The notes: generated by a model not told the origin, from the sequence alone. A stretch of 64,000 bases of DNA from a virus (IMGVR_UViG_3300048591_000212); one strand, 5' to 3'. Positions 22,699 to 64,000 are shown, counted from the stretch's first letter. Numbers and translations are program-made.

Positions 22699-23758
22699 AA
22701 TAGTAATATATTCAGGTGGCTTTCATCCATTTACTCCTGCCCACAAACAAGTCTATGACCACATAGGCGAGAAGTTTGAGGACTTTGATGTCTGGGTTGC
22801 CACATCAAATTCCACCAAGAATCGTCCCTTTAATTTCGAGCAAAAACGGACAATCATGATAGAGTCTGGAGTATTTGAAGACGAGATTGTTCAGGTGGAA
22901 CAGCCATATTCTCCCAAGGAGATTTTGGACAATTATGATCCCAATATGGACATTTGTGTTTTCGTTGTGTCCAAAAAAGACTCGGACAGATTTGAAGGAG
23001 ATGACGGCGGCAAGTACCTAGAATTTCCAGAAAATTCCGAAGACCTAAAACCATTTGGTAAAAACTATTATGTATATTACTGTCCAGAATATTCCTTCAA
23101 GATAGACGAAACCGAGATTCGGGATGCCTCCTTTGTTCGGGAGATGTACAAGAAGGCCAATTCCGAGGTAAGAGAAAACATTCTTCAACTCATGTATCCA
23201 AATAGTAAGGATATTCCACTACTTCAAAGAATTTTCGACGAGGCTCTTGGTAAAAAGAGTTTTTCGGATATTCTAAATGAGGTAAAGGCTGGTTATGATG
23301 ATTGGGGATTCGTCACTCAAAACGGAACCATTATTGATGGAACCAAGGACAGGACGGCCCGGTTTCATCGAGAATTACTTCAGAAAATTGTGCTGGATAA
23401 AAAACTGGCCTCAAAGTATTTTACTTCTGAACAACATGAGGATATCATGAAGAATGAGGTCGAAGGCGTCGGAACGAATTGGCTTCATGTTCCTATGTCC
23501 GTCGCCTTTGATTATGGCTGGTGTCGGTGGTATTTTAAGGACAGCCGAGAAGTCACCTTCGATATGGTAATGGGTGAGATTACTCGCGCAAAAGGAATTC
23601 AAAGAGAACTGACCTATAGACAGAGAAGGGCCATTCTTGGAATTATAAATAAATATCCAAATAAGGAAAGGCTGATGTACAGTCTGTATACATCCACATT
23701 AATGAGCGGAAGATTCGAGGGACTAAAATACTCAGAATTTCTGAGTATTTTACTGTAA
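22691..23758 (+). CDS. HIGH-superfamily nucleotidyltransferase fused to a GWxRW-family module
   Basis: IYSGGFHPFTPAH..VATS..RPFNFEQK..FVVSKKDSDRF..RDASFVR; internal KKSFSDILNE then DWGF..G..H..GWCRW. Confidence 0.7.
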   Translation: MNKIVIYSGGFHPFTPAHKQVYDHIGEKFEDFDVWVATSNSTKNRPFNFEQKRTIMIESGVFEDEIVQVEQPYSPKEILDNYDPNMDICVFVVSKKDSDRFEGDDGGKYLEFPENSEDLKPFGKNYYVYYCPEYSFKIDETEIRDASFVREMYKKANSEVRENILQLMYPNSKDIPLLQRIFDEALGKKSFSDILNEVKAGYDDWGFVTQNGTIIDGTKDRTARFHRELLQKIVLDKKLASKYFTSEQHEDIMKNEVEGVGTNWLHVPMSVAFDYGWCRWYFKDSREVTFDMVMGEITRAKGIQRELTYRQRRAILGIINKYPNKERLMYSLYTSTLMSGRFEGLKYSEFLSILL

Positions 23759-23776
23759 CATATAAATATATAAGGT

Positions 23777-25075
23777 ATGACGGAACACATGGAACCAACA
23801 AATAATTCAAAAAACTACTCTCAGATTTTCGAAGAAATGAAGTCTGATATTCGCCTATTAAATGAATCTCAGAGAATGAGTACCAATGTCGGAATCATTC
23901 GGCCTTTGTTTGAGGCGGCGGAAGAGTGTAATTGTCTCAAGAAAGGAATCAGCCCAAACTCTACTGATGAAGAAGTTCTGGAGGCCATTGATGTTCTTTC
24001 AGAAAAATACCTTTCATATCTTCTGTCTTCTGAGTTTCTAGCCGAGGCTGAGGAAGAAGAAAACACAGAACCGGACCCGCCCACAGAAGAAGAACCACTT
24101 CCCAACGAAGAAGAAACTGAACCGGAAGAAACCAATATTGAAAAAGAGATTGCAGACGAAACCGACGAAGAAAAGAAAGAGCGACTTCAAGTACTGGATT
24201 CCATCATAAAGCAGAAACTTATTCATAAATTCGCCAAGACTCCGGTCGATATTAATAGAATCACCAAGACTCTTATTAACTTCATTACCAAGGGACACGA
24301 CGAGGCCCAGATTAAAAATGAACTCGATCAGAGAGCCTTTATTGATTTCTCCTTGGATGTTATGAATGTTCTACTAAAGAACAAAAGAATTGCCTCTTTG
24401 GTTGGACTGGAAGCCATCACCGAAGAAAAGGAAGTAATTACCGAAGCGGCGAAAGGAAAGAATCCAATTAAAAAGAAACGCCGGGAAAAGAATGCTCCAA
24501 AGAAGGTGGACACTATTTCTCCTAAATTGGATATGCTTTTGCGTCTGGGTCTGGTGGACAAGAAACTTTATGCCAGAGCCAAAAGAGCCTTGGCGAACAA
24601 GAAGGCAACCGGATCGATTTCGATTTATCGGAATATTCTCTTTGATCTTCTGGATGATATCATTCAGTATATTCAGAAAGACCCGACTCTCTATAATCGA
24701 ATGAGAATTAATGTCATGAAGGAAATGAAGAATTCTTTGCCGAAAAAGGAAGACTTGATTGCTGCATATGAAAGCGGTCAGGACTGTCGCAGAAAAGGGC
24801 TTACTGAGGACGAATTGCCAGAGGAGTTTATGACCGACGAATTTCTGAAAGAGGCTTGGTACAAGGGATTTAATAACAAAGAGAAGCCACAATTCAAGAA
24901 GCCGCAGGAAAAGGATTCTCCTCATTACCGAACCGATCACCACTATGGAGACGGGGACATTGATCCAGAAACGGTTCCAATATTTAAGTCGTCTTTGAAT
25001 AAGGATGAGGACGATATCGACGAAAAGAAATCCAGATTCAGGGATATTCTTCAGAAAATTCGTGGAAGGGAGTAA
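23777..25075 (+). CDS. acidic late protein, probably head-associated
   Basis: TATAAATA 9 nt upstream; LLNE, AITE and VITE sites; KLDMLLRLGL motif. Confidence 0.6.
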   Translation: MTEHMEPTNNSKNYSQIFEEMKSDIRLLNESQRMSTNVGIIRPLFEAAEECNCLKKGISPNSTDEEVLEAIDVLSEKYLSYLLSSEFLAEAEEEENTEPDPPTEEEPLPNEEETEPEETNIEKEIADETDEEKKERLQVLDSIIKQKLIHKFAKTPVDINRITKTLINFITKGHDEAQIKNELDQRAFIDFSLDVMNVLLKNKRIASLVGLEAITEEKEVITEAAKGKNPIKKKRREKNAPKKVDTISPKLDMLLRLGLVDKKLYARAKRALANKKATGSISIYRNILFDLLDDIIQYIQKDPTLYNRMRINVMKEMKNSLPKKEDLIAAYESGQDCRRKGLTEDELPEEFMTDEFLKEAWYKGFNNKEKPQFKKPQEKDSPHYRTDHHYGDGDIDPETVPIFKSSLNKDEDDIDEKKSRFRDILQKIRGRE

Positions 25076-25080
25076 TACAC

Positions 25081-27039
25081 ATGAAAAACTTTTCCTCATT
25101 TAATGAAGAACTAAAGATGGCCGAAATTGATGTTCTATCGGATATTCTGGATTCAATTGAACTAATTGCCGATGAATCCTATGAAAGCAATGAGGCTGCT
25201 CTTGATGAGGTTGCTGGATTGCTGGCTCAGGTTGGTCTTTCCTTTAATAAGGAAGAAGTTCTGTCGGCCCTAGAAGCCGGGGAAGAGATTGAGATTGCCT
25301 TGGTAGATTCTGAGGATTCCGAAGAAACCAGTCTGGAAGTCTTTGTGGATGAGTCACTTGGAAAGAAAATTGATGGTGATATTGTTCTTCGAGTCGAACC
25401 GGGGTCCGAGGCCGGAAAGATTATTCCGTCTGTGATGATCTATTTCGATGACGAAGGCGCACAGGAATTGGCTGATGTGGAATTTGAGCCAATTGATGAT
25501 TCTGAAGAAGAGGATGATGATGAATCATTAAATGAAGATCCCCATAAAGAAATGCCTTATGATTTTTATGGTTGGATCACACAAAATGAAATAGTCGATT
25601 TAACTGAAATTAGTGGCGCAAGAACTCATGCAAGATTTCCAAAAGAAATAAAAGACAAATATGGAATCGAAGGAAATCATGATCGTTATGATTTTAATCC
25701 AATAAGTTCAACATCATTTTATAAAAAGAATTATGCTAAGGGGTTTTTGAGATGGATGATTCGGCAGGGCAAAATTACATTTGAAAATTCTTTGTTTGAT
25801 GATATGAATAAAATTTCAGAAAAACAGATGGAATTAATTCAGAATTTATGTAAGAAATATGACGATTATCTTCCCGTTGGAATTAGATTAGATTTTCAAA
25901 AATTCAATAATTATGATAAACCCTTCAAAAATTTTGGAAACTTTTTGAAGGAATATAAAAAGAAAATTAAAAGAGAATCCACATTAAATGAAGACCGACA
26001 TTCTCAGATGTCCTATGAAGCCTATGGCTGGATTACTCGAAGGGGTCCAGAGATTGTTTACTTGGATGAAGTCGATGGGGCGGTGTCCCATACCGATTTT
26101 CCATTTGAATTAGAAGACCAATTTGATGGCCTAGTCTATGCCGGGTATGATGCTAATTATCGAAAAGGAAACCTGAGATGGCAGGTTTGGAGGGGATATC
26201 TCACTATTGAGAATTCCATGATAGAATCGAAAACGGATATTCCAGAGAATCAGTTCATGTTAATCAAGGAACTATATGATAAATATGAAGACATGATTCC
26301 GAACGGAATCCGTCTGGATTTCAGTCGAGATACCTATCTAACTGGTTCGGATCTGAGAAAATATGGATCATTTAATGATCTACTTCGGGCCTATAAACAT
26401 GAAAAAGACCCACACAGACTAATTTACAAAAAGACAACAGCAGAGGGAGAAGTAATGAGCAACAAGAAATTTTCTGATTTATTGAGTGAGACGGAAGAGG
26501 ATCTTTTCAAAGACGACCCAGAGGCAGAAGAAGAAACTCCAGAAACACCGGAACCGGAAGAAGAAGATGATGATGGCAACGACGATAAAGAGGAAGAGGA
26601 AGAATCCAAGGTCGAGAAGTATTTGAAAAAGGCCGTCAAGGAACTTGGAAAAGAATTGGACAAGAGTGACGAAGAGTTGTCCGATGAAATGATCGATTCG
26701 ATTACTCTGAATCTCAAGATGGAACTGGAAACTTTGATTAATGGTGAGGAAGAGGAAACCGAGTCCGACGAGCAATCCGAAACTACCAATGAAGTTCCAG
26801 AAGAGGGAACAGAGACTTTGGAACAGCAGGACGCCAATTCCGATGTGATCATTTATGAGGCATTTGAGGCAAAGGATCTCTTTAATGTTATTCTATTTAA
26901 GCCGACTTCAAGACTGACAATCAGTAGAATCTTCAAGGCTCCGTCCACAAAGACTCTCGAAAAGATGGTCAAGGATGAATATCCTGAATTTTTGATTCAG
27001 CATGTGACACCAATTGCGGAGTATTTTCCAGAATTCTAA
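25081..27039 (+). CDS. multi-module internal-head-like polyprotein with two GWxRW modules
   Basis: MKNFSSFNEE start; SLNE|DPH and TLNE|DRH modules; MSNKKFSDLLSE segment; acidic linkers. Confidence 0.7.
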   Translation: MKNFSSFNEELKMAEIDVLSDILDSIELIADESYESNEAALDEVAGLLAQVGLSFNKEEVLSALEAGEEIEIALVDSEDSEETSLEVFVDESLGKKIDGDIVLRVEPGSEAGKIIPSVMIYFDDEGAQELADVEFEPIDDSEEEDDDESLNEDPHKEMPYDFYGWITQNEIVDLTEISGARTHARFPKEIKDKYGIEGNHDRYDFNPISSTSFYKKNYAKGFLRWMIRQGKITFENSLFDDMNKISEKQMELIQNLCKKYDDYLPVGIRLDFQKFNNYDKPFKNFGNFLKEYKKKIKRESTLNEDRHSQMSYEAYGWITRRGPEIVYLDEVDGAVSHTDFPFELEDQFDGLVYAGYDANYRKGNLRWQVWRGYLTIENSMIESKTDIPENQFMLIKELYDKYEDMIPNGIRLDFSRDTYLTGSDLRKYGSFNDLLRAYKHEKDPHRLIYKKTTAEGEVMSNKKFSDLLSETEEDLFKDDPEAEEETPETPEPEEEDDDGNDDKEEEEESKVEKYLKKAVKELGKELDKSDEELSDEMIDSITLNLKMELETLINGEEEETESDEQSETTNEVPEEGTETLEQQDANSDVIIYEAFEAKDLFNVILFKPTSRLTISRIFKAPSTKTLEKMVKDEYPEFLIQHVTPIAEYFPEF

Positions 27040-27431
27040 TGGCCCAACCATCCAAGGAAAAAAGTGAGATTCGGCGTTTTGCTGAAACTGTTTATAGTAA
27101 TCCTTCATGTAATTCAACCCTAGAATTTGATGAGGATTACCAAAAAATAAAGTACATCAAAATTCTGATCAACAAGCTATTGAAGAATAAGGAGTCGAAT
27201 ATCCGGCTCCTACTCAACCATATTATTTGCTTTGATAATGTATTTCCGGGTTCGACTTCTCTCTTTATTCTGCTGTCGGAATGTAATCAGATTGAACAAC
27301 AGAAGATGATTGTGTCTATTTTTCATTTTCTGAAACGAGGCTTGCCAGAAGTTATCAGAGTTCGTGGAATCGATATACATACGAGTGCCTATATAGAGAA
27401 TTCTATTTTGGAGAAATTGAAAAGACAATGA
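27039..27431 (+). CDS. conserved T4-like hypothetical protein
   Basis: EFDEDYQKIKYIKIL..NIRLLLNHII.F.NVF, a motif common in T4-like phages. Confidence 0.7.
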   Translation: MAQPSKEKSEIRRFAETVYSNPSCNSTLEFDEDYQKIKYIKILINKLLKNKESNIRLLLNHIICFDNVFPGSTSLFILLSECNQIEQQKMIVSIFHFLKRGLPEVIRVRGIDIHTSAYIENSILEKLKRQ

Positions 27432-28255
27432 GAATTAAGTACTATCTTTTTGAAGGAACCTTTTCCTCATTCTCTGTTTCCGAAAATTCCTTAAATCTAA
27501 TTGAGGAATATCAGAACGGAAGAAACAATTTATCCGAAAAGATAGTAAATCCGACGGCACGAGAAAATATTCATGTGTCTATGATCTTCTCCCCGGATAA
27601 GGAAGTTGATCCTTCCTATGAAAAATATGCCGAAAAGAGAGACTCTTCCAACAAGATTCGTCTGGAGAAGGAAACCTTTGCCCTCAATTTTCGACACTAT
27701 GGTTCGGCCTTGGCCCTGACCTTTAAGTCCCGCCGCCTCGAAAACGAATTTCGTAGAATATTCAATATTAAGGGGGACGTGATTAATCTGAAGTATGTAA
27801 ACCCAAGGGATCTTCATGATCGGTCCATTTTCGGCCTAAGTCCGAATGATTACAAATACGCCTCATTCAAGTCTCATATTTCCTTGTCCTATTCGGCATC
27901 TAAAAATCTTCACCTGAAACGGGCTGGTCTGATGCCACCCAATTTTGATATTGTTCTGGATTCGGAATCACTTGAGGAATACAAGGAAAAGGTCATGTAT
28001 GCCACCGAGGACGGAGAGGTAGCCAATGTAACTGCCAATGTTGCCACGGTCGAAAAGCCTCTTCAGACTCAAAAAAGAAAGAAGCCGAATGATATCAAAA
28101 CCTTTGTTGCGGTTGATAATGAAACATGGAAAAATCATAAATATAAATTGATTGAAGAAAGCAACTACCTGTTACAGAATATTCAGTCTCCGATAGTCCT
28201 ATTGAATGATGACACCGGAGAGACCACCTATATTAAATATGGAAAGTTGGTATGA
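27428..28255 (+). CDS. hypothetical late protein
   Basis: 275 aa; LFEG N-terminal site; C-terminal NVTANVA and PIVLLNDDTGE. Confidence 0.6.
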   Translation: MRIKYYLFEGTFSSFSVSENSLNLIEEYQNGRNNLSEKIVNPTARENIHVSMIFSPDKEVDPSYEKYAEKRDSSNKIRLEKETFALNFRHYGSALALTFKSRRLENEFRRIFNIKGDVINLKYVNPRDLHDRSIFGLSPNDYKYASFKSHISLSYSASKNLHLKRAGLMPPNFDIVLDSESLEEYKEKVMYATEDGEVANVTANVATVEKPLQTQKRKKPNDIKTFVAVDNETWKNHKYKLIEESNYLLQNIQSPIVLLNDDTGETTYIKYGKLV

Positions 28256-32762: not shown

Positions 32763-34361
32763 TCGACCTTCATCGAGGCCATTACTTTTGCCCTGTACGG
32801 AAAACCATTTCGAAATATCAACAAGCCTCAGCTAGTCAATAGTCGTAATGGTGGAGACCTTCTTACTGAAATTGAATTTTCTACCAATGGCAAATCATAT
32901 AAAGTAATTCGAGGAATCAAGCCCAATATTTTCGAAGTCTATGAAAACGGTAAACTACTGAACCAACCATCCGAATCCAAGGACTATCAGGATATTCTTG
33001 AGAACAAGATTCTGAAAATGAATTACCGGGCCTTTACTCATATCGTGGTCATTGGAAATGCAATTCATACTCCGTTCATGCAGTTGAAACCAGCCGAGCG
33101 TCGAGGAATTATCGAGAATCTTCTGGATATTGATATATTTTCGAAAATGAATGTTGTCCTTAAACAGCAGATATCCGACCTGAAGATTCAATTAGACGAA
33201 TGTCAGACCGAGCATCGGCTGGTCTCCGAGAAGATCAAAATTCATGAAAAGACTCTTCAAAATTCTCGAAATAATATCGACGCCAAGATCGATAAGAATA
33301 ATATGGATATTCAAAATCTTCAGAATACCCTAGAGATCAAGCAGTCCAATCTAGCCGAACTTCAACAAAATGTTCTGGATATTTCAGAATATTCTAAGAC
33401 GCTCAAGAAGACCAATGAGAAAATTATGAAGGTGCGGGAATTTCGGTCATCCTTTGAAACTACCATTCGAGCCTTGAATAAGGATATTGAGTTTGTGTCA
33501 AATAATGAGGAGTGTTCCTCTTGTCATAGAGAGTTTTCTGAGTACTACCGGGCCGAGTTTCTGTCCGAGAAAAATCAGGAACACCAGAAGTTTACAGAGG
33601 CTCTATCCAAGTCCGAGGATAAACTGAAAGAATTGTTGGACGAATTGAACTCAATTTCAGAAATTATGTCCCAACAGAACGACATTTCACAGAGAATTAC
33701 TAAAATTCAGGCCGATATCTCCTCTATTGAAAAAGAGATTTCGGTTATCATGAAGACGAATGAAACTCTGCTGAAGGAGAGCCGAAATGATCTGAAAGAG
33801 ACTCAGGCCGAATATGATGCCCTCAATTCGGAACTGGCGGAATATTCCAGAAAAAAGGAATCCCTGATTGAGGAAAATCATATTCATTCTCTGGTATCAG
33901 TGATGCTCAAGGATGACGGAATTAAGACCCGAATTATCAAGAACTACTTGCCGGAAATGAATCGTCTGATTAATCGGTACATGAAGATGATGGACTTTCA
34001 TGTGTCCTTTAATCTGGAAGAGAACTTTTCCGAGACAATCAAGACCGCCAACAGGGAATCCTTTTCCTATAATTCCTTTTCAGAGGGAGAAAAAATGCGA
34101 ATCGACTTGGCGATTCTGTTCACATGGAGAGAAATCGCCCGCATCAAGAACTCTGCCAACACGAATCTTCTGATTCTGGACGAAGTATTTGATTCCTCTC
34201 TGGACTCCAATGGCATCGAGGACTTCATGAGAATCATCAATTCCTTTGGACATAAGATGAATATTTTCATCATTTCCCACAAGGAAGAAGTGCTGTCGGA
34301 TCGGTTTCAGAATACAATTAAGTTCGAAAAAGTGAAGGGCTTTACTCGAAGAGTGGCCTAA
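32394..34361 (+). CDS. gp46: 123-aa C-intein plus C-terminal piece of gp46
   Basis: VSHN|STFIEAITFALYGKPFRNINKPQLVN; coiled coil, CSSC hook, FSEGEKMRIDLA, LILDEVFDSSLD, ISH. Confidence 0.95.
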   Translation: MKTTLKNIIDFYNEYPEEIGNISVLGRFGYKTIEFADTTAFDSEVIRVETESGKFIEGSPEHLLLSEDNWKKINELSVGMCIETEFGPEEVVSILRLPETEDLYDLQVADVKEFYANGIVSHNSTFIEAITFALYGKPFRNINKPQLVNSRNGGDLLTEIEFSTNGKSYKVIRGIKPNIFEVYENGKLLNQPSESKDYQDILENKILKMNYRAFTHIVVIGNAIHTPFMQLKPAERRGIIENLLDIDIFSKMNVVLKQQISDLKIQLDECQTEHRLVSEKIKIHEKTLQNSRNNIDAKIDKNNMDIQNLQNTLEIKQSNLAELQQNVLDISEYSKTLKKTNEKIMKVREFRSSFETTIRALNKDIEFVSNNEECSSCHREFSEYYRAEFLSEKNQEHQKFTEALSKSEDKLKELLDELNSISEIMSQQNDISQRITKIQADISSIEKEISVIMKTNETLLKESRNDLKETQAEYDALNSELAEYSRKKESLIEENHIHSLVSVMLKDDGIKTRIIKNYLPEMNRLINRYMKMMDFHVSFNLEENFSETIKTANRESFSYNSFSEGEKMRIDLAILFTWREIARIKNSANTNLLILDEVFDSSLDSNGIEDFMRIINSFGHKMNIFIISHKEEVLSDRFQNTIKFEKVKGFTRRVA

Positions 34362-34882
34362 TCCTTTAGTGCCACAATTGCATTTGTGGTCCCCTTGACT
34401 CTGGAAAAAGAACCAAGTACTTTTTTAAGCAGAGGAAAATATTCCTTTAATTTTTTATTGTGTTGGAAACCTTTTGTTGTCTTTTTGCCCTCACCGGACT
34501 CGTCTCCAATATAAACAGACACATAAATTTTTCCGCCGTCTTTGGTAAGTTTCTTAGCAAGCCGCAATACTTCTTCTTGGGCATCATCCTCCTGAATAAC
34601 ATTCAGAACATTATTCACTGTGGAAGTGTCGAACGGAGCCTTGGATAAAACCATTGAGTTATGTTTTTCGGAACGATTGTACTGATCATAAACATAATTT
34701 TCAACTCCTTTAGACTCAAGAAATTCGGTGGCGAGATCATATTTTCCGCCACCGATATCTATATTGGTTGTTCCTTCTTTCCATTCGACCTTTTTGAATA
34801 ATGCTGCAACAATTTTCTGAGATGTGTCGGCAGAAGATATTTCTTGTTTAGTCTCAACCAAAAATGTGTTGAATGTTTTCAT
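34358..34882 (-). CDS. class I SAM-dependent methyltransferase with capsid-targeting-like N-terminus
   Basis: MKTFNTFLVE; NIDIGGGKY, YVYDQYN, NNVLNVI. Confidence 0.75.
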   Translation of the reverse strand: MKTFNTFLVETKQEISSADTSQKIVAALFKKVEWKEGTTNIDIGGGKYDLATEFLESKGVENYVYDQYNRSEKHNSMVLSKAPFDTSTVNNVLNVIQEDDAQEEVLRLAKKLTKDGGKIYVSVYIGDESGEGKKTTKGFQHNKKLKEYFPLLKKVLGSFSRVKGTTNAIVALKD

Positions 34883-34883: not shown

Positions 34884-36098
34884 TTAGTGAGCCAGAAGGT
34901 ATGTCCCAAGAACATCCTTACGATTTGCTGCATCGTCTCCGTCTTTTGTCATAACAATAACATTCCATTTCTGTTTATCACCAACAGGAGTATCCATCAT
35001 CTCAGAATAGGTCAGAATGGTGTCTCGATCTATATTATATTTCTCAGCAATTCGATCCTTTAGAGTCTCAATCTTTTCGGGATCTTCAACTCTATTCGTT
35101 CCTTTCTTGGTAACTAAATCATTAAATAGATCACTCTTAACAACCTTTGAGTGTTTGATATTTACAAAATCAATTTTCTTTTGTTGTTGTGGAGTTGCGC
35201 CTTGTGAAAAATTGATAGTAAAGTTTTCTGGTTTATCGGACGTAGCCACATCAGCCATCTTCGTGTAGGCATAAAAATCAACATTAGGAAACTTTTCTGC
35301 TACAGCATAGGCCAATTTTAGATAGTCTGGCGAGAAGAAATCTCCAGCATCATGCCAACGAATCACGATTTTGATTCCCTTCTTACCTTTATTTTTCACT
35401 TCTTTGGTTATCTCTGTCTCTAATTGTTTCTTGAATCCTTCTGGATCATTTACTAAAAAATTCAGAATTCTTGTCTGGGAAATAGATGATGCCGTATACT
35501 GAACAAATCCACCCTTGGTGGCATAGCAGAATACTTTACACTCTCCAGCACCGGGACATGTATTTACTACAACAAATTCTTTCTTTTTTTCATCAAAAAC
35601 CAATCCCTTAATTGCAGGAAGGCCGACGTTGTAGAACATACTATAGGTTCCGTCGCTGTGTTCCATTTTTTCATTTTGTTTTAATATATTTTTGGGGCGA
35701 ATTGTTATTTGTTTGGCTAACTTATCCAAGTCATATTCTTTCTTGGTATCTTCATCTTTAATGATAATTCTTGGTGCCTTGTAGGATTTCGAGTCAACCC
35801 CAACAATATTCGATTTATGAATATAGGGCATCTTGTATTTGTCGCCTTTTTCCTTTTCTCCAGAAACAACTTTATCTAGGTAGCCACTAAGTTTATCCTT
35901 CGAAAGAGTATCCCGCTCGATACCCAAGAGATTGTCATCTTTGGCCTCATCAATTTTTTCGTCTGGATCAACTCCGGTTTCGCTTCTGACGAAATCTTCC
36001 AGACTCATAAAATCGAAGCCGGAAATGTAAGAAGACTCACCATCTTTCTTTTCTGTGACAACACCTTCCGACAAAATGAAATCTTTTAATCTTTTCAT
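34884..36098 (-). CDS. GP88-like (radical-SAM-related) protein with capsid-targeting-like N-terminus
   Basis: MKRLKDFILSE; TCPGAGECKVFCYA Cys cluster, IRWHDAGDF, FYAYTK. Confidence 0.75.
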   Translation of the reverse strand: MKRLKDFILSEGVVTEKKDGESSYISGFDFMSLEDFVRSETGVDPDEKIDEAKDDNLLGIERDTLSKDKLSGYLDKVVSGEKEKGDKYKMPYIHKSNIVGVDSKSYKAPRIIIKDEDTKKEYDLDKLAKQITIRPKNILKQNEKMEHSDGTYSMFYNVGLPAIKGLVFDEKKKEFVVVNTCPGAGECKVFCYATKGGFVQYTASSISQTRILNFLVNDPEGFKKQLETEITKEVKNKGKKGIKIVIRWHDAGDFFSPDYLKLAYAVAEKFPNVDFYAYTKMADVATSDKPENFTINFSQGATPQQQKKIDFVNIKHSKVVKSDLFNDLVTKKGTNRVEDPEKIETLKDRIAEKYNIDRDTILTYSEMMDTPVGDKQKWNVIVMTKDGDDAANRKDVLGTYLLAH

Positions 36099-36105: not shown

Positions 36106-36161
36106 AAATTCCTCTGTATTATTTACTATTTCCAAGTAGTATTTATAATACAGAGGAATTT
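36106..36161 (-). promoter_or_regulatory. 16-bp RBS-sequestering hairpin containing a late promoter
   Basis: aaattcctctgtatta/taatacagaggaattt; minus-strand TATAAATA at 36147-36140; SD GAGG lies in the 3' arm. Confidence 0.8.
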
Positions 36162-36173: not shown

Positions 36174-36653
36174 TTAATTATCTGAAATCAGTCGATAAAA
36201 GACATGATTGCCAACAATCTTTGTCTTTTCTATGTTCATTCTCCACCCCGGTTCAATACTCTTTTCATGAAAAAATGTGGAACCATTGGTAGGATCTTTA
36301 TATAGATTGAAGTTTTCGGCAACGTACAACGACTCTTTCCATCGCCAGTCTTGGTCAGAAATGGGATGAAGGCTCTGATAATAATCGTTGCTCGTCCAGC
36401 TAAATTGCTTTCGTTGGTAAACTACTTCACAATAATTCACTGGAAATACTGAAGATTTCATTCTGTTATGTGTCACATAGGCAACAGCAATCTTTCCCTG
36501 AATCGACTCAGAGCCGGATTCATAGAAGATATTTTTTGCCAGACATGACAGATTTTTGGTTCTTTCGGCTTTCGAGGAGTCTGTTCCGGTCATGGTCTGA
36601 GAACCAATTCCGGCGCAGAACACCAAGGCCAAGAGAACTACTTTAAGTAACAT
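36174..36653 (-). CDS. SleB-like cell-wall hydrolase
   Basis: Signal peptide; CLAKNIFYESGSE..GKIAVAYVTHNR..CEVVYQ..QFSW..GSTFFH..VGNHVFY. Confidence 0.9.
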   Translation of the reverse strand: MLLKVVLLALVFCAGIGSQTMTGTDSSKAERTKNLSCLAKNIFYESGSESIQGKIAVAYVTHNRMKSSVFPVNYCEVVYQRKQFSWTSNDYYQSLHPISDQDWRWKESLYVAENFNLYKDPTNGSTFFHEKSIEPGWRMNIEKTKIVGNHVFYRLISDN

Positions 36654-36915: not shown

Positions 36916-37401
36916 TCAGTCTGAATCAACACTAATGTATTTTTCTGGTATAATATCCAGAAATTCCTTGTAATCGACCTCTTCCAATTGTTCTTTTTTA
37001 TGTGGACTTGAGACCGTAAATGTCTTAATTAGATTCTTGTGTTTATTGACGAGGCCCAAGAGAGCCACTATCTGCTTCTTCGGTGCCCGTCTTATTGGAT
37101 TCGCGATCTCCATATCAAAATCTTTTCCGGTGTCAATGTACCAATGAATCCAGCCAATTCTCATGGGTGCGTCTGGGTGAGCGGTGATGTCTTCTTCTGC
37201 GAATTTATTAAAAAACTCACGCTCCTTTTCAGTCAACAGATCGGAGTGTTCCTGAATTATCTCAAAAAGTAGATCACCATGAGAATTTGACTTGGACGGA
37301 TTGCCGTCAAACACCACTCCATTCAAAGAGATATAACCCCACTCCAAATAGTATTTTGTGAAATGGACAACCTCGTTAAGAAAATTGGAAAACTTTTTCA
37401 T
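36916..37401 (-). CDS. stand-alone GWxRW-family protein
   Basis: MKKFSNFLNE; EWGYISLNG..DG..H..GWIHWY; TATAAATA upstream. Confidence 0.75.
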   Translation of the reverse strand: MKKFSNFLNEVVHFTKYYLEWGYISLNGVVFDGNPSKSNSHGDLLFEIIQEHSDLLTEKEREFFNKFAEEDITAHPDAPMRIGWIHWYIDTGKDFDMEIANPIRRAPKKQIVALLGLVNKHKNLIKTFTVSSPHKKEQLEEVDYKEFLDIIPEKYISVDSD

Positions 37402-37413
37402 ATATTGAAGTAT

Positions 37414-37731
37414 TTATATGATTCCCTTTTCTTTCAGAAGCCAAAGTTTTTGGTCGAATACATACTCAATAATAGGAATTGTGGAATATTCTGATAGTTC
37501 TAATATTCCGGTACTATAACATTTTGCACAATGGTAATCTTCTTCACAATCGTCGAAATAATCAGGATCATCAACCGATGGGGGTCCACCACACATACAT
37601 TCGCATTCGAAGTCGTCCAACTCTTCAAGACAGGCATACATGAATAGAATGTTCCTGTAATAAATGTCAGTCGAGTTCCCGAATTCCGGCTTTCTTGTTT
37701 GGTATAATTCTATGATATCTTTTATTCTCAA
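37414..37731 (-). CDS. hypothetical Cys-rich protein
   Basis: CECMCGG..CEEDYHCAKC. Confidence 0.55.
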   Translation of the reverse strand: MRIKDIIELYQTRKPEFGNSTDIYYRNILFMYACLEELDDFECECMCGGPPSVDDPDYFDDCEEDYHCAKCYSTGILELSEYSTIPIIEYVFDQKLWLLKEKGII

Positions 37732-43226: not shown

Positions 43227-43631
43227 TCAATCATAAAATTCAGCTAGTGTCGCCGAGATGAATTTCTTTGCGGCTGAGACACTGATGTCTTCTCGCCCCC
43301 GATAAATTCTCTTGCTGGTATCCCGAATCTCAATTGAACATTCTCCGCTCACATCAGGAAGCGAATCCGCCGCCTTCAAAAGACCACTTAGACTTTTTTT
43401 GGAAAAGGCTCTCAGATGTAATTGGTTTTCGGCGGGATCAACCAGCCATTCGGCAATGTCTTCTCTCGGAATCTTTGGGTACATGTCCTTCAGCTTTGGG
43501 TGAGTTATGGCCCCCTTGACTCCAAGACCATCAATAATCTTTCCGTTTGGAAGAACGATTCCCCAATACTTAAATTTGAATCCGTGAACGTCTTCGTTCA
43601 ATGTTTGAAGATAATCAGAAAATGTTTTCAT
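43227..43631 (-). CDS. stand-alone GWxRW-family protein (divergent)
   Basis: MKTFSDYLQTLNE|DVH..KYWGIVLPNGKIIDG..THPKL; cataaata upstream. Confidence 0.7.
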   Translation of the reverse strand: MKTFSDYLQTLNEDVHGFKFKYWGIVLPNGKIIDGLGVKGAITHPKLKDMYPKIPREDIAEWLVDPAENQLHLRAFSKKSLSGLLKAADSLPDVSGECSIEIRDTSKRIYRGREDISVSAAKKFISATLAEFYD

Positions 43632-43735
43632 GTCTCGTATTCTATTTATGAAAAGTGCATGGGCCGCGTCCTTCAGGGAAACACGGCCCAAGATTTCCTT
43701 CTACGCTCGGTAGATGAAGCACTCTTATTTATGAA

Positions 43736-46700
43736 TCATTTCAGCGGACATGCTCCCTCGCATTCCAATGATTCCAAGTCTCCACCAGAAAGATCCTTTT
43801 CGAAAATATCATCAATGGTTTTGAGATTTTTGATCATTGATAGATATTGTTCTTCAGTAATCTCTTCGTATGGAGCCTGAGCAAAGCCGTGTTCGGAGTG
43901 AAGAAGAAAGGAAACCGACTTAATTGAATTATCATAATTATTCTTCAGCCACTCCTTAATTTCCGGCAACTCCTCCTTTCGATAATACACCGTCACTGAA
44001 ATTGCATTATCGGCCCAGACCGTCTGAATCTGTTTCACCAACTCCAACTGAGTCACGGCTGACATATTTTTGGAAATAAGAGTGTCCTTCAATTCACACG
44101 GAAATTCTACGACAACGGTGCTTCTGTCCTCGGACCCATCAAAGTTTTTCACATATTCAATATGGTATCCCATGTCCCTACAGACCTTTACCAACTTGTC
44201 ATCGGACGACATGCGAATTCTACGAATATAGTGTTCCGAAAAGCCGGGGTGAATTCCGGGTGTCGCTCCAGCCAACAGAGAAAGAGTTCCACTCGGTTTC
44301 ACAAGAGTCAGACGAATCGATTCGGGCCAGCCATTCAGCTTGGACCATTCCTTGTCGAATTTTTTCAGTTCTCTATAGACTTCATCCAACCACTCAATTT
44401 TGTCAAATGATTGGCAAATTCCAGTAATACCCAAACCAACTCTCATATTCTTGTGGACAATATTATTGGTCTTTTTGTGAAGGTATGGCATGGCAGCGAT
44501 AGCTTTTTGAGTCTTGTACAGAAGTTTAGCCGCCCGAATAGTCTCTTCCTTCGACTGTAAGTTGTTCAAAAATAAGTCACTTAGGTCGCACGTTTCTCCG
44601 TCAGCCAATGGTGTCTCTCCACAATTTGGTAAATATACTCCATCGTATATTTTGTTTCCATACTTATTATTCTTAATTGATGTAATAATTCCTACGGTAT
44701 GATTATCATCAACCGTGATATTATAGACCGTCTGCTTTTCTTGCAGTAATTCGACAGACACCACCTTATGATTATAGGTCTCGGCAACGCTCACCAATTC
44801 CTTGTAACCAGAAAACATTGTTTTGGACCCAAACCGAATCGGAACATTTTGTTCCCGACACTTCTGCTCCCATGTCTTTTTGAGAACTCTTCCGTTCTGC
44901 TCTCTTAGTTGGAAATAGATATCCAACTGTTGCTTCTTCTTTTGGGCGGATTCATTTTCGAAATAATTTCTCAATTCGGCCTTTCTCTTTTTGTTGACTG
45001 GTGAATTGGGCCGACCATTTCTATGTGCTAAAGCATTTTGAACACTGGCATAGGCCCGTTCTCTTTCCTGATAATTAATCCAAAATTCCGAACCATCATA
45101 TTCATCATATCTCTTGACCAAACACACACCATTTTCGATCTTGGCATCATAGCCCTGTTGAATTGCTTTTTGATATGTCTTTACTACTCTCGGATCAATA
45201 TTAACAATGGATTCAAAGCCACACTCAATTGCGGCCCATTTTGCTAAATCCGAAGGCGTTGCGAACCAATCGGTTCTTCTCCACTCAGAAAAGGAACTCG
45301 GCACTCCAGTTTCTTTGGAAAAATTTTCCCACTCTTTTGTAGAAAATCTTCTTCCGAGAGTCCTAGTCAAATCCAGAGCGGCCTTTTCTATGTCAGAATT
45401 CGAAAAGCCAGAATATTTTCCGTTCTTTTCTCCCTGAGTGTCCATTGAGGCATGAAGGGCACAGTGATCAGAAAAAGTCATAATTTCAAGATTTTCTGGT
45501 CTATTATCAAATGAATCATAGTTCTTGCGGTGAACGACCAATCCTCCGCTTATCCAGCCATTCTTTTGCTCTTCATCATGTCGAGCCTTCCATTTTTCTG
45601 CCTCAAAAAACTGAGAAATCAACCTATGTTCGAATAATCGTTTATTTTTCATATTAATAGAATCAGTATGAACCATAAAGTATTGTTTTCTGTTTTGTTG
45701 AGAGATTTTCTCTGGAGCTTTCCGAAAATGAAACAGGCTGTCATTCTTCTGAAGATCCTTTGCCAACTTCACTTCACCACCCAGAAGACATACTTTGTGA
45801 TCTGGAGTAACATCAAAATGAGAACCATTATCCAAAGTCACCCGAACAATATTCTTATTATATCCAGTCACTCTTGGATTGCGGCCCATTTTAATTGAGA
45901 CCTCTCCAGTATTGGGATCAACCGAATAAACAGGAACATCATTTCCTGTCTCGGCCAATTCTCGAATAGTAACAGAATTTCGTCCATCGGCTACTGCAAC
46001 GAGAGTGTCACCCGAAAAACACGGATTCAGGCCCTCACAATTATCCTTCTGTAATTCTCCCAATCTTCCGAATTTTTGGGTCAATGGAAGATTAAAGAAA
46101 CCATAGGGTTCTCCATTTCCGTTATATCCCTCCCATACACTCGGAAGAATATAATCATAGCTGTCGGCATAAATTGTGTTATTCGACATTGCCCGCCAGT
46201 TTGGAATATTTCCCAAATCCCATCTCTTCGCCCTCAAAAACAGAAAGTCATCCGCATCACCCAGAGCAATAGTGGCAGTTCTTCTTACGTTGCCACTAAC
46301 CACAATTTTACCAATAATATTACAAATATCCAAAACATCCAAAGAGCGCAGTTTCTTTCCTTCCCGGCTTTTCAGAATTTTGGAAATAGTTTCAATTCCT
46401 TCAATTAGGCTACCGGGGCCGGATGCCACACCACCAAATCCCTTGATCTTTTCTCCGTATCCCCGAACCAGAATAGTCGAATATGTAAATGATTCTCCAG
46501 TCTCAAGAAAAGCCTTAAAGGTCTTGCGGAGAAGTTTCACCCAACCTTCACGAGAATCAGGAACAATGAAATCGGCATCATTGGTTTTCTGGTGAGTAAT
46601 AGTCACATTTTTCTTCACTCTGGGTAGCTCATGAATATCTTCCTTTTTAACCGAGAACCCAACACCGCCACCCAACATTAGATTCTCAAAGAGGAAACAA

Positions 46701-47092
46701 AAATCCTCGTACTCCGAAATACGAGTAAAGAAACAATTAATCAAAGAGTTGGCACCAAATCTTTTAATCGTGCTGGTTCCAAGTTGCCACAACATTCTTC
46801 CGGCAAGAGTACACTTCAGATTAAACATCAAATCAAAAAGTTCTTGGGCTTCTTCTGAAGTATACTTCGCTCCGATCTCCTGAGCGCCATTAATGCAACG
46901 GGCAATTGTCTGCCACCACTCCTCGGTGATTTCTCCATCGGGCAACAGTCGAGCATAGGTCCGTTTATATACCAAATACCCAAGTGAGTTAAATCCCCAC
47001 TTTGGATTCTTTCCAACATACTTTCTCAAAAAGTCTTCCGGCAAAATGTCTGAAACGAAAGTTGAAAGGTAATTATCGTGAATTGTTGTCAT
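43736..47092 (-). CDS. nrdJ: class II (B12-dependent, monomeric-type) ribonucleotide reductase with intein
   Basis: VYKRTYAR, AGRMLW, NCF, GGGVGF, PDSREGW, VRRTATIALG, NP|C GE, KPSGTLSLL, QAPYE; likely start 47092. Confidence 0.95.
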   Translation of the reverse strand: MTTIHDNYLSTFVSDILPEDFLRKYVGKNPKWGFNSLGYLVYKRTYARLLPDGEITEEWWQTIARCINGAQEIGAKYTSEEAQELFDLMFNLKCTLAGRMLWQLGTSTIKRFGANSLINCFFTRISEYEDFCFLFENLMLGGGVGFSVKKEDIHELPRVKKNVTITHQKTNDADFIVPDSREGWVKLLRKTFKAFLETGESFTYSTILVRGYGEKIKGFGGVASGPGSLIEGIETISKILKSREGKKLRSLDVLDICNIIGKIVVSGNVRRTATIALGDADDFLFLRAKRWDLGNIPNWRAMSNNTIYADSYDYILPSVWEGYNGNGEPYGFFNLPLTQKFGRLGELQKDNCEGLNPCFSGDTLVAVADGRNSVTIRELAETGNDVPVYSVDPNTGEVSIKMGRNPRVTGYNKNIVRVTLDNGSHFDVTPDHKVCLLGGEVKLAKDLQKNDSLFHFRKAPEKISQQNRKQYFMVHTDSINMKNKRLFEHRLISQFFEAEKWKARHDEEQKNGWISGGLVVHRKNYDSFDNRPENLEIMTFSDHCALHASMDTQGEKNGKYSGFSNSDIEKAALDLTRTLGRRFSTKEWENFSKETGVPSSFSEWRRTDWFATPSDLAKWAAIECGFESIVNIDPRVVKTYQKAIQQGYDAKIENGVCLVKRYDEYDGSEFWINYQERERAYASVQNALAHRNGRPNSPVNKKRKAELRNYFENESAQKKKQQLDIYFQLREQNGRVLKKTWEQKCREQNVPIRFGSKTMFSGYKELVSVAETYNHKVVSVELLQEKQTVYNITVDDNHTVGIITSIKNNKYGNKIYDGVYLPNCGETPLADGETCDLSDLFLNNLQSKEETIRAAKLLYKTQKAIAAMPYLHKKTNNIVHKNMRVGLGITGICQSFDKIEWLDEVYRELKKFDKEWSKLNGWPESIRLTLVKPSGTLSLLAGATPGIHPGFSEHYIRRIRMSSDDKLVKVCRDMGYHIEYVKNFDGSEDRSTVVVEFPCELKDTLISKNMSAVTQLELVKQIQTVWADNAISVTVYYRKEELPEIKEWLKNNYDNSIKSVSFLLHSEHGFAQAPYEEITEEQYLSMIKNLKTIDDIFEKDLSGGDLESLECEGACPLK
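44624..46021 (-). mobile_element. contiguous 466-aa intein with HNH domain
   Basis: CFSGDT..VTPDH..EHRL..VVHRKN..DNRPENL..VYNITVDDNH..YLPN|C, inserted at the catalytic NPC motif. Confidence 0.92.
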
Positions 47093-47108
47093 ATTTGTCT
47101 CTTGTAAA

Positions 47109-47927
47109 TTAGTTCTCCTGTGTATTTTCCATAATGTATCGAATTGAAATCCAGTCATTAAAATTTGCAAATCTGGAAGCCTTGGGTGAGCAGACGGCAA
47201 CATGCTCAAATGGTGACAAATGCGGAGGGTTTGCGGTTCTCAGTTTTTCATATAACTCTAGATCCTTATCCACATCAATCTTTCCGTCATGGGACAGATA
47301 GGATGTTCTGGCGCACCGGGCCACGCCGATTTTCGTTAGCTCCTCAATATTCTCTTCTTCTTCGGTATAGCCGTCCACAATATAAGGAATATGATAATGT
47401 CTTGAAATCGGAGTCGATGAAATATAGGAGTCCCGAACCGCATTAGCAAAGGCTTGCATTTCCGGTTGGGCATCCGGGTGGCATCTCTGGTTGAAAAAAT
47501 TCTGAATCTCCGTGGTAGTAAAAACAATCGTATGCCACATAAATGGTTCCAGTAGGCGATTAATTACTTGTTTGTGAAGTCCGAGTTTTGTCAATCTTTG
47601 AGCAGACTCAACCGCATTGTCGCGGGCCTTTAACCATTCTTTCTGACACTCAGAAATTAGTTCGGGCGGAAGTTCTTCTCTGGCAGACATTCCGGCCTGA
47701 TTTTTGCCCCAATGAAGCGGCATCGCTAGATCATTTAGTACTCTTTCAATTTGCTTTGTAATCGGAATGGCTCTTGATGATGCCGAATTGCGGCTGTGCG
47801 CTCGGTGCGCATTTTTTTCTGGAAGAATAAATCTGTGCATTCGTCCTTCAAATGTTGTGATCCGAGTTCCGGTATAAGGGTTGGTACTATCTAAGATCAC
47901 TTTGGCAGTCGGCTTGCTATATTCCAT
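47109..47927 (-). CDS. thyX: ThyX-like flavin-dependent thymidylate synthase
   Basis: HRFI..AHRAHSRNSASSRAIP, KQVINRLLEPF, FFNQR.H.DAQPEM, RCARTSY, HLSPFEH. Confidence 0.85.
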   Translation of the reverse strand: MEYSKPTAKVILDSTNPYTGTRITTFEGRMHRFILPEKNAHRAHSRNSASSRAIPITKQIERVLNDLAMPLHWGKNQAGMSAREELPPELISECQKEWLKARDNAVESAQRLTKLGLHKQVINRLLEPFMWHTIVFTTTEIQNFFNQRCHPDAQPEMQAFANAVRDSYISSTPISRHYHIPYIVDGYTEEEENIEELTKIGVARCARTSYLSHDGKIDVDKDLELYEKLRTANPPHLSPFEHVAVCSPKASRFANFNDWISIRYIMENTQEN

Positions 47928-58895: not shown

Positions 58896-58906
58896 ATACA
58901 TAATAC

Positions 58907-59134
58907 ATGGCTACAGAAGAAAAAGACTTTCTATTAGTAAACGCTGAAGAAGATCGGATCGATGTTCTGACAGAGATGGATTTTGGTGAAAAAAGAATCA
59001 TTAATCTAGCAGATCCAATCAATGAACAGGACGCAGCCACGAAAAAATATGTAGATGAAAATGGTGGAGGCGGCGGTTCCTCTATTGATATCAAAAAGGC
59101 TATGGCCTATTCCTTTATATTTGGAGCAAGATAA
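58907..59134 (+). CDS. small tail-fibre-associated protein
   Basis: RIINLADPINEQDAATKKYVD fibre motif; cataaata 9 nt upstream. Confidence 0.65.
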   Translation: MATEEKDFLLVNAEEDRIDVLTEMDFGEKRIINLADPINEQDAATKKYVDENGGGGGSSIDIKKAMAYSFIFGAR

Positions 59135-61955: not shown

Positions 61956-62585
61956 ATGCAATATCTATACACAGATGGTTCAAGACTTTCAATTTCATAC
62001 AACCAAGTCAGACAAGAAAATAAGAATATTTCTTTTCCTATTGGTGAATATCCTATCATAAATGGCTATACCAGATACAGAATTACAGAAAAACCACAAA
62101 CAGGTATTTTAGAATCTTGCGTCGAGATCGAGCCGGAATTTGACGGACAAGAATATATTCAGAGATGGTCTGTGGTTCCTCTTCCTGAAGAAGAAATGAT
62201 TTCAATATTTGAAAGTGAAAAAGAAAATCTAAAGAATATTCTTACAGAAAAAAGAAGAGAAGTTGAAGAAGGCGGCACCACTGTAGTAGTAAACCAGTTT
62301 CTTTCCTTCAATGTTTCCACTGACAGCAAAAGTCAAAACAAATTATTGGGTGTCTTTGTTATGGCAATGCAGAATCCACAGTATACAGTTAACTGGAAAA
62401 TGTCAAATGGAAGATTTGTGTCGCTAAATGCAGCGATGATCGGACACATTTCCACCACAGTTCGTAATCATATTCAAAAATGTTTCGATAGGGAAGCCGT
62501 TCTTCTTCAACAAATCAATGAACTTCAAACCTTTGAAGAATTAAATTTATTAAAACAAGAAATAGAGCTATTTGAAATTACATAA
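61956..62585 (+). CDS. tail-fibre assembly-like protein (DUF4376-like C-terminus)
   Basis: KRREVEEGG..STD..SQ.KL..NWK..NG.FV.L....I......V..HIQ.CF.RE..L. Confidence 0.75.
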   Translation: MQYLYTDGSRLSISYNQVRQENKNISFPIGEYPIINGYTRYRITEKPQTGILESCVEIEPEFDGQEYIQRWSVVPLPEEEMISIFESEKENLKNILTEKRREVEEGGTTVVVNQFLSFNVSTDSKSQNKLLGVFVMAMQNPQYTVNWKMSNGRFVSLNAAMIGHISTTVRNHIQKCFDREAVLLQQINELQTFEELNLLKQEIELFEIT

Positions 62586-62594
62586 ATACTATGT

Positions 62595-63032
62595 ATGGTA
62601 AACGATAAACTTGACGAAATTTTTGATATAGAACCAATCTCAGAAACAAAGGACGCAGAATTAATAACTTACGAACCACAACAGGTTCCTGATCCAATTT
62701 CTTCTGAAGAAAAACTGAATCAGGACATTGATAATGTTCGTGAGACACAGTATCATTTAATGAAAGTTGGGAAAGAAGTTCTGGATGATCTTGTCGTTGT
62801 GGCGAGGCAGTCTGAGTCCGCAAGAGCCTATGAAGTTTTAGCTGGTCTAATCAAAACCACATCCGAAGTTGCACAGTCCTTAGCCGATACCTCCATAGAA
62901 AGACATAAGACTTTAGCCGTCAAGGAAAAGAAATCTGAAGGTGATACTGTCACAAATAATATTCTGTTTACTGGATCTACGGCAGAGCTACAAAAATTCC
63001 TAAAACAAAAAAGAGAGGAAGTGAATGATTAA
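62595..63032 (+). CDS. gp16: terminase small subunit gp16
   Basis: LDEIFDI..SESARAYEVLAGLIKT.SE..VTNNILFTGSTAELQKFLK. Confidence 0.88.
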   Translation: MVNDKLDEIFDIEPISETKDAELITYEPQQVPDPISSEEKLNQDIDNVRETQYHLMKVGKEVLDDLVVVARQSESARAYEVLAGLIKTTSEVAQSLADTSIERHKTLAVKEKKSEGDTVTNNILFTGSTAELQKFLKQKREEVND

Positions 63033-64000
63033 ATCGTTTAAGTCTTTTTCTATCAATGAGTCTGCCTTGGATAAGGATTGGGGTTGGTTTGACCCAGACT
63101 ATAAGCTGTACTCCTTCAGTAATTTAAAGAGATTGGTGGACGCCGGAAAGATTCAAAATCCGGGTATTCTGAGACGTATGAAGGATCATTATGATTTCAT
63201 TGGATATATAACAAACGGAAAGATAACCAGCAGCACCACTGCCATCAAGCAGGGTTGGGTTCGGTGGATGATTACTGAGGGAGAAAATCTCTATATTCAT
63301 TTCGAAAAAAATGTGACAGATAGAAAGAAATTTCTCGAATCATTTATGGCTAAGATGAAGACGCCATATAAGGGCGTGGTTATTGAGGTTCAGGACGGCT
63401 ATAATCTTCTGACTGATTATGGTATGGATCTTACTCCCGCTCAGTTTATTGAATATTTCGATACCGAAAAGTTGTGGTCCTTTAAGGATCGAAAGGAAAG
63501 AAGACTGGACGAAAGACAATATCATGATACATACAAGGAATGGGGCCTGATGTCTCCCTCTGGAAAATTCTATTCATCTCTTGATCCAATGTTTTCTGAG
63601 TTTATGGACGAGAATAATCCACTTAATTTTTTTCATGGTAGTATGTGGGAGTTTATTAGTACCGGAAAGATATCAAAATTCAATAATCGAGCAACTAGAG
63701 AGAAAAAAGCCAAAAAATTCGAACAGGCAGTAGACGACTCTGGCTGGATTCGGTGGGCGGTTGAGGACATTAAATGGAGAGACGCTGTATACTTAAATAT
63801 CGATATGAATTTGGGAAAGGTGTCTCTAAGAAATATTCTGAAATTACTGAAAAACATTTCGGCGGATTATAGAAAAATTCATCTGGACTTGACTGACCGT
63901 GGATATAATTTTGTGAATCGGACTCAGTTTCTTTCCTTTCTGAAGACGGAATTGTTGGATGAAAATGTTTCTGTGTTTAACGAAGACCCCCACGAAATTG
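63025..64000 (+). CDS. GWxRW-family polyprotein (3' truncated by the window edge; absent from the ORF track)
   Basis: MIKSFKSFSINE; module 1 DWGWF..H..GWVRW; LDE| module 2 EWGLMSPSG..H..GWIRW; FNE|DPHEI starts module 3; frame open to the end. Confidence 0.85.
   Translation, partial: MIKSFKSFSINESALDKDWGWFDPDYKLYSFSNLKRLVDAGKIQNPGILRRMKDHYDFIGYITNGKITSSTTAIKQGWVRWMITEGENLYIHFEKNVTDRKKFLESFMAKMKTPYKGVVIEVQDGYNLLTDYGMDLTPAQFIEYFDTEKLWSFKDRKERRLDERQYHDTYKEWGLMSPSGKFYSSLDPMFSEFMDENNPLNFFHGSMWEFISTGKISKFNNRATREKKAKKFEQAVDDSGWIRWAVEDIKWRDAVYLNIDMNLGKVSLRNILKLLKNISADYRKIHLDLTDRGYNFVNRTQFLSFLKTELLDENVSVFNEDPHEI

Follow-up and report, generated by a model that had tools for sequence, protein, structure and literature searches.

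An expanded family of GWxRW modules in an uncultured T4-type phage, preceded by leaders that resemble the T4 capsid-targeting sequence

We analyzed a stretch of 64,000 nucleotides (nt) of viral DNA (IMGVR_UViG_3300048591_000212; hereafter the window), which encodes repeated copies of an uncharacterized GWxRW module, each preceded by a φ-x-E site (hydrophobic residue, any residue, glutamate). Seven complete modules lie in five window genes, and the start of an eighth is completed by contig L001, which shares an identical run of 759 bases with the window and continues 2.3 kb past the window's end. The window also carries genes for a T4-type DNA polymerase, UvsX, a gp41-type helicase, gp46/gp47, a gp61-type primase, ribonucleotide reductase, polynucleotide kinase (PNK), and collagen-like tail-fibre proteins. 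Among 50,697 isolate phages, no DNA polymerase is more than 45% identical to that of the window, with cyanomyoviruses coming closest, and megablast of the module region gave no DNA match in the same isolate genomes. These comparisons identify an uncultured and distant T4-type phage as the source of the window.

The modules were delineated by translation of the ORFs (open reading frames) and by an independent hidden Markov model (HMM), trained on 42 module segments taken only from other phage lineages and run on the 735 six-frame ORFs of the window. This external HMM matched all seven complete modules at independent E values of 2e-10 to 2e-18, while no other window ORF fell below E = 1. M1 occupies residues 187–355 of a 355-amino acid (aa) nucleotidyltransferase (NTase) protein (22691–23758, + strand; HMM 1.3e-17), the first 186 residues of which form an HxGH, cytidylyltransferase-like NTase (Pfam CTP_transf_like, E 8e-4). 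An internal leader-like junction, GKKSFSDILNE (23249–23281, +), precedes M1, which runs to 23755. M2 and M3 stand in tandem in a 652-aa polyprotein-like ORF (25081–27039, +), at about residues 150–298 (~25528–25974) and 299–458 (~25975–26454). This ORF opens with the leader MKNFSSFNEE and an acidic N-terminal region (isoelectric point, pI, 4.05); M3 is followed by the internal leader-like MSNKKFSDLLSE (26455–26490, +), then by an acidic stretch and, at the C terminus, a short conserved domain. M4 makes up the whole of a stand-alone 161-aa protein with the leader MKKFSNFLNE (36916–37401, −; HMM 1.9e-18), for which a word-based homolog search returned only three sequences, all close homologs in metagenomes. 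M5 is a divergent stand-alone copy of 134 aa with the leader MKTFSDYLQTLNE (43227–43631, −, ATG at 43631), matched by the HMM over its whole length (2e-10) and retaining only the last Trp of GWxRW. Last, a tandem gene with the leader MIKSFKSFSINE (63025–64000, +) runs off the window; it encodes M6 (residues 1–158 of the ORF; 3.3e-14), M7 (residues 159–312; 6.6e-14), and, from 63976, the start of M8 (FNE/DPHEI), which is complete in L001.

The φ-x-E sites ahead of the eight copies read LNE in five cases and INE, LDE, and FNE in one case each, and the motif stands ahead of a copy whether it is N-terminal, internal, or fused to an enzyme. The initial annotation, which had proposed at least eight copies, each behind an LxE-type site, was thus correct on both points; it had also placed the modules correctly, since translation of the five ORFs showed that each position it gave is the first residue after a φ-x-E site. 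Each contig fragment of the partial relatives searched carries one to three module copies and T4 carries none, which indicates that the family is expanded in the window phage.

The copies are highly diverged. Single-sequence searches connected only M1 with M4 (~1e-11) and M2 with M3 (~1e-25). Profile–profile comparison joined the M4/M1 group with M2/M3 (E 3e-6) and with M6/M7 (1.8e-5), as well as with M5 (hhalign, 6e-7), in the last case across the N-terminal 40 residues only. The family is also rare: a full HMMER search of 1.84 billion cluster representatives with a profile of the window modules found 44 representatives at E ≤ 1e-3, about 35 of which came from other lineages, and tblastn with three different modules gave no match in the 50,697 isolate genomes. 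Scans of five module proteins returned no Pfam or PHROG match to the module, and apart from the NTase part the module-bearing proteins of the window matched no Pfam family at E ≤ 0.1, PF12699 included. The module profile found nothing below E 0.1 among PDB sequences, and an Atlas feature search with the module gave no usable match. Together, these results indicate that the module is a real but rare and previously undescribed domain family of 130–170 residues, as the initial annotation had supposed when it described a family of an uncharacterised module and proposed a profile search of this kind.

Conservation was counted over 77 module instances. Glu10 is kept in 70, Gly22 in 73, Gly28 in 68, and His41 in 75; the aromatic positions are Tyr18 (59), Trp21 (59), Trp84 (43), and Trp87 (54), with Gly83 in 61 and Arg86 in 59, and position 8 is Leu, Ile, or Val in 62. 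AlphaFold gave the same confident model of the 161-aa M4 protein from a 9-row alignment (predicted local distance difference test score, pLDDT, 85; predicted template modelling score, pTM, 0.81) and from a 67-row alignment (pLDDT 88, pTM 0.83). The predicted α/β fold runs from a β-hairpin through helices, a second β-hairpin, and a helix to two strands. Searches with this model found no convincing structural neighbour: Foldseek against the PDB gave no match at E ≤ 1e-3, the best match in BFVD was an uncharacterized protein (2e-3), the ESM Atlas searched by shape gave TM ≤ 0.40, and the best hit of an exhaustive VIA search, to gelsolin-like domains (Z 4.2), lies under the tool's own noise level. 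The structure prediction proposed with the initial annotation yielded a confident fold with no convincing neighbour in these databases.

The domain scored above 90 in pLDDT, and residues 1–15 (9 rows) or 1–13 (67 rows) scored below 50. Glu10 of the φ-x-E site thus matches the Gly, His, and Trp residues of the core in conservation, yet it lies within a segment predicted to be disordered. This pattern fits a short linear motif. A His follows the junction Glu within 2–6 residues in 38 of 70 modules and by exactly three residues (E/x-x-H) in 23 of 70. A cut after Glu would in the latter yield an N-terminal X-X-His, which may correspond to the amino-terminal Cu/Ni-binding (ATCUN) pattern, although this could be a coincidence.

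The leaders at the N termini are 10–13 residues long, and their consensus over 28 N termini is MKTFKQFLxE. The capsid-targeting sequence of T4 is MKTYQEFIAE, and the head protease cleaves it a single time (PMC8442874). Thus, the resemblance to this sequence that had been noted for the stand-alone copies holds for the wider set of leaders. Of 90 crude gene starts in the window, 5 have this pattern, as compared to 0.26 expected, and its carriers include proteins that have no module. A 404-aa GP88-family protein starts with MKRLKDFILSE (34884–36098, −, ATG at 36098), and a 174-aa methyltransferase-like protein with MKTFNTFLVE (34358–34882, −, ATG at 34882). A 335-aa KxDG protein with the leader MTKNFRQFCLLNE (21691–22698, +) is encoded directly upstream of the NTase–M1 gene. 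These three ORFs were considered as possible cryptic modules and rejected, as none matched the HMM. In the GP88-family protein, the leader is followed by a 141-residue acidic N-terminal extension resembling a removable propeptide.

Orthologs of the KxDG protein with 47–49% identity carry leaders at the same position (MLSFKSFLILE, L008:8167–9159; MLSFLQFLAE, L004:8374–9366). The KxDG proteins (330–335 aa) share an N terminus of the form leader-E-GG(x)GGHMxH and are always encoded directly upstream of the NTase–module gene; they have no match in Pfam, PHROG, or PDB and may represent a new ligase or nucleotidyltransferase. Beyond position 64000 of the window, the M6–M8 gene is followed by two further leader-bearing genes (L001:1166–3036), which encode a 300-aa unknown protein (MKTFKEHANIYITE) and a CCA-adding enzyme with PolyA_pol and HD domains (MKTFKQVLTE). 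In relatives, the leader is found on the KxDG ortholog, on a GH19 hydrolase (MKSFKQFLIE, L008:15364–16683, +), and on other proteins. A different L-x-E-containing leader is shared by at least 10 consecutive or nearby genes of contig L006 (IMG/VR 3300034283_003118), with the starts MRLTEF, MRLMELF, MKLTEF, MTIKEL, MLIKELLSE, and MTIKQLITE; three of these genes are modules, and several lie behind TATAAATA-like boxes.

Late-promoter-like boxes accompany the module genes. TATAAATA occurs 12 times in the window, a fourfold enrichment over the 2.95 occurrences expected, and a [TC]ATAAATA box lies 6–11 nt ahead of the first ATG in all five module transcription units, the same spacing as ahead of baseplate- and fibre-type genes. 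M4 has a TATAAATA box 9 nt before its ATG (37411–37418, −), and M5 a CATAAATA box 11 nt before its own (43643–43650, −). The unit of the 652-aa protein is headed by a 432-aa ORF (23777–25075) with a TATAAATA box 8 nt before it (23761–23768, +). A CATAAATA box (62581–62588, +) lies 6 nt before an ORF (62595–63032) that overlaps the start of the M6–M8 gene, and another (21507–21514, +) lies 6 nt before the 57-aa ORF heading the unit of the KxDG and NTase–M1 genes. A TATAAATA box (36140–36147, −) also precedes the GP88-family and methyltransferase-like genes.

Two module-bearing relatives (IMG/VR contigs G001 and G003) encode gp23 together with a Peptidase_S77 (gp21-type) protease. The propeptides of their capsid proteins carry IITE/S and VLNE/S upstream of a conserved mature core, comparable to LTE/A in T4. 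A third member of the family lies at the end of a baseplate/fibre operon in a 188-kb T4-type contig.

The genes around M1–M3 belong to a cluster that is common to the window, L008, and L004 and is located upstream of gp47/gp46. This cluster runs from the KxDG protein through NTase plus module, an acidic leader-bearing protein, DUF7207, and an Acb1-like 2H enzyme to a coiled-coil protein. In L008, the homolog of the 652-aa protein has no modules, and the counterparts of residues 1–148 and 593–645 are contiguous, which indicates that the window phage has gained M2, M3, and their acidic spacer by insertion. L008 encodes the homologs of ORF 23777 and the 652-aa protein as one fused protein, with an intact internal MKTFKEFNE kept at the junction. 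The Acb1-like 2H phosphodiesterase of the window (27428–28255, +; Pfam PF23474, 1.7e-9) has two HxS/T motifs and no module, and its ortholog in L008 (14070–14981) combines Acb1 (PF23474, 9.4e-29) with a module (8e-19). These comparisons with L008 indicate that the modules behave as cassettes, present or absent in otherwise orthologous proteins, and that the leader marks unit boundaries in separate and fused genes alike. The window Acb1-like protein itself is a candidate nuclease against CBASS (an antiphage signalling system built on cyclic oligonucleotides) or Pycsar (an antiphage resistance system with a pyrimidine cyclase).

The fusion of the module to an HxGH NTase recurs in six representatives (window, P0013, P0018, P0028, P0030, and P0032) and in both orders, P0013 being the ortholog of the window NTase–M1 protein; in L017, a module gene lies directly downstream of a separate HxGH NTase gene. 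Other partners are Acb1 (L008/L009), Nudix (L010), GNAT (P0025 and P0045), ParB_N (P0017), and DUF5824, and some relatives combine modules with NTase, DUF5824, GNAT, ParB_N, or Nudix together with an HExxH-like motif. The module proteins of the window are mostly repeats of one domain and contain no peptidase domain. Because the partners all act on nucleotides or nucleic acids, and given the invariant His41, Arg86, and a cluster of aromatic Tyr/Trp residues, the simplest guess is that the module binds a nucleotide-type ligand or nucleic acid. Its recurrence with NTase, Acb1, Nudix, GNAT, and ParB-N makes a counter-defence role at the start of infection plausible. G003 also encodes Nampt (NAMPT_N plus NAPRTase; L008:1150–2646, −), which may form an NAD-salvage pair with the NTase.

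Two further observations concern genes near M4 and M5. A 159-aa protein adjoining M4 (36174–36653, −) has a signal-peptide-like N terminus and a sequence that resembles SleB-type cell-wall hydrolases, as judged by eye only. The large subunit of ribonucleotide reductase (43736–47209, −; 1157 aa) contains an HNH-endonuclease-like insert at about residues 511–592, which is probably an intein or a homing-endonuclease insertion.

We consider packaging of the module proteins in the phage head, followed by their cleavage, to be the best reading of these data, and one that stands about evenly between right and wrong. According to it, the module genes would be transcribed late, and the proteins would be docked by their leader on the prohead's scaffolding core. 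The gp21-type head protease would then cut after Glu, removing the leader and separating tandem modules, acidic spacers, and fused units, and the folded modules would remain inside the head until they pass into the host along with the DNA. What points to packaging is the near-identity of the leader to the T4 signal and its presence on unrelated proteins, the conserved yet disordered φ-x-E site, the late-promoter-like boxes, the T4-type protease of relatives, and the preservation of internal leaders in fused genes. The further proposal of the initial annotation, that there is one module variant per host defence target, is pure analogy and draws only on the T-even precedent.

Several features weigh against packaging. 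In the NTase–module fusions, the NTase fold stands at the very start and no leader precedes it, although φ-x-E is kept ahead of the module; either an internal leader is enough for packaging or the Glu serves the domain itself. The occurrence of this fusion in both orders, along with the adjacency of the separate genes, suggests that the two domains act together and are not cut apart. At the Acb1–module junction of L008, the Glu is present, but P3 holds no canonical hydrophobic residue. NMNAT-like, Acb1-like, and CCA-adding enzymes have cytoplasmic roles and no obvious need to be packaged. Furthermore, φ-x-E is a short motif in Glu-rich proteins, and the head protease, scaffold, and capsid genes of the window phage lie outside the window. 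A more specific version of the packaging reading, which we regard as doubtful, is that the module is a mobile cassette domain with immune signals or cofactors derived from nucleotides (of the NAD/ADP-ribose type, or cyclic oligonucleotides) as its ligands, and that it is delivered pre-made from the head. The protease sites at the junctions would let the head protease resolve the polyproteins, with their divergent copies, NMNAT-like NTase, and Acb1, into a ready-to-inject counter-defence kit.

The conserved Glu and the enzyme fusions could also be explained if the module were a cytoplasmic accessory domain, a substrate-, nucleotide-, or RNA-binding partner of NTase-, Acb1-, and Nudix-type enzymes that is not packaged at all. 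The φ-x-E(-x-x-H) stretch would then be a functional, flexible N-terminal arm, and MKxFxxFL the start of that arm, inherited through duplication and fusion. We view this as possible, if tentative. It would account for a Glu10 as conserved as the core even in NTase fusions that have no N-terminal leader, for the frequent His 2–6 residues after it (38/70 modules), and for the link to NTases, which is seen in seven lineages, with the domains fused in either order or encoded side by side. The insertion of modules inside Acb1-like and other proteins and the RNA-repair and nucleotide neighbourhood (KxDG protein, PNK, Acb1-like 2H enzyme, and CCA-adding enzyme) agree with it as well. However, AlphaFold leaves residues 1–13 unplaced even with 67 diverse sequences, and the leader is also found on the module-free GP88, methyltransferase-like, KxDG, CCA, and GH19 proteins. 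In addition, its consensus is nearly that of the T4 capsid-targeting sequence, and the late-promoter-like boxes and neighbouring virion genes fit a role in the virion.

Packaging might, on the other hand, serve a bulk purpose. The modules would then be internal or scaffold-associated head proteins for DNA condensation, charge balance, or core building, comparable to T4 IPII/IPIII and to the inner-body paralogs of giant phages, and not specific anti-defence effectors; their expansion would reflect dosage or a structural need. The flanks of the 652-aa protein are indeed strongly acidic (pI 4.05), like scaffold-core proteins, five of the eight window modules are basic (pI 8.6–9.1), and the head paralogs of giant phages, whose function is unknown, number up to 20 (PMC5694885). 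We nevertheless consider this explanation unlikely. Across the family, module pI values span 4.6 to 9.6 (median 6.9), so that there is no uniform DNA-binding charge, and the idea of uniformly basic DNA-binding modules was rejected on this ground. The near-invariant His/Arg/Trp set points to a specific ligand, as do the enzyme fusions, and the absence of the family from T4 and from the 50,697 isolate genomes searched argues against a core structural component. A constraint at the nucleotide level appears least probable: the shared N termini would reflect the AT-rich, unstructured start of near-leaderless late mRNAs or a recombination hotspot for cassette shuffling. The late boxes, just 5–14 nt from the start codons, and the cassette behaviour of the modules are in line with it. 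In contrast, specific residues (Phe4, Phe7, Leu/Ile8, and Glu10) are kept across phages with differing DNA, and the leader is also found at internal junctions, at which the start of translation plays no part. A role in recombination would moreover be compatible with the leader being a protein signal and does not replace that reading.

If the leader works as in T4, heads would be loaded with far more than small inhibitors, and the scope of protein injection by T4-type phages would be widened. The cargo would comprise the module family along with ligase-like, CCA-adding, GP88-family, and methyltransferase-like proteins and the GH19 hydrolase. The T4 capsid-targeting sequence would then be conserved across very deep T4-type diversity, and the combination of MKTFxxFLxE with φ-x-E junctions would provide a sequence rule that predicts packaged proteins in metagenomes, making the packaged proteome of uncultured phages readable from sequence. 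Through its repeated fusion to Acb1 and the HxGH NTase, the module becomes a concrete candidate for a new anti-defence activity, and the insertion of cassettes into orthologous proteins shows a possible route by which such an arsenal could diversify.

The closest known counterparts are the internal proteins of T-even phages (Ip1/IPI, Ip2, Ip3, and the ORFs of the ip locus). These carry a 10-residue leader of the form M-K-T-aromatic-x-x-F-L/I-x-E that ends in a gp21-type φ-x-E, and they are likewise encoded by multiple small, non-essential-looking genes in a T4-type background, with late promoters where the window has late-promoter-like boxes. They are documented as injected, target-specific anti-defence proteins (PMC8442874, PMC3012670, and PMC12373910), whereas the window modules are known from sequence alone. 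T-even internal proteins share only the packaging leader, and each of Ip1–3 blocks one specific GmrSD (PMC12373910 and PMC3012670). In contrast, the candidate cargo in the window is a single homologous domain family, its copies also occur in tandem within polyprotein-like ORFs and fused to enzymes, and the modules have no sequence or fold similarity to IPI*.

Giant phages encode paralog families of processed head ejection proteins (PMC5694885), among them the phiKZ inner-body proteins, SPN3US gp53/54 (PF12699), and SPN3US paralog family B with ~20 members. These are expanded paralogs, as are the window modules, and the N-terminal propeptides they share contain a prohead-protease motif, as the leaders here would; in both cases copy number varies between relatives (PMC5694885). 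However, the protease motif is A/S/G-x-E there and L/I-x-E here, and the families are unrelated; the giant-phage proteins were identified by virion mass spectrometry, while the evidence for the window modules comes from DNA. The polyvalent proteins of phages and conjugative elements, a published computational prediction (Iyer et al. 2017; PMC5512222), are multidomain, predicted to be delivered together with DNA and cut into effectors, and share the partner domains ParB-N, GNAT, and Nudix. They usually have their own processing peptidase and many unrelated domains, whereas here the head protease would process the proteins at a conserved linker motif and the repeat unit is one domain family.

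Anti-signalling proteins such as the Acb1 nuclease and the sponges Tad1, Tad2, and Acb2 are also small, diverse accessory proteins. A link to Acb1 is provided by the full-length Acb1–module fusion of one relative and by the Acb1-like gene in the window cluster, although Foldseek, VIA, and the PDB-sequence profile detected no fold or sequence similarity of the module to Acb1, Tad1, Tad2, or Acb2. As compared to these systems, what appears to be new here is a single homologous domain as candidate cargo, which occurs as tandem copies and as cassettes, has a conserved motif at its junctions, and is tied to an NTase and Acb1; its lineage seems very remote from T4, yet the leader is nearly the same.

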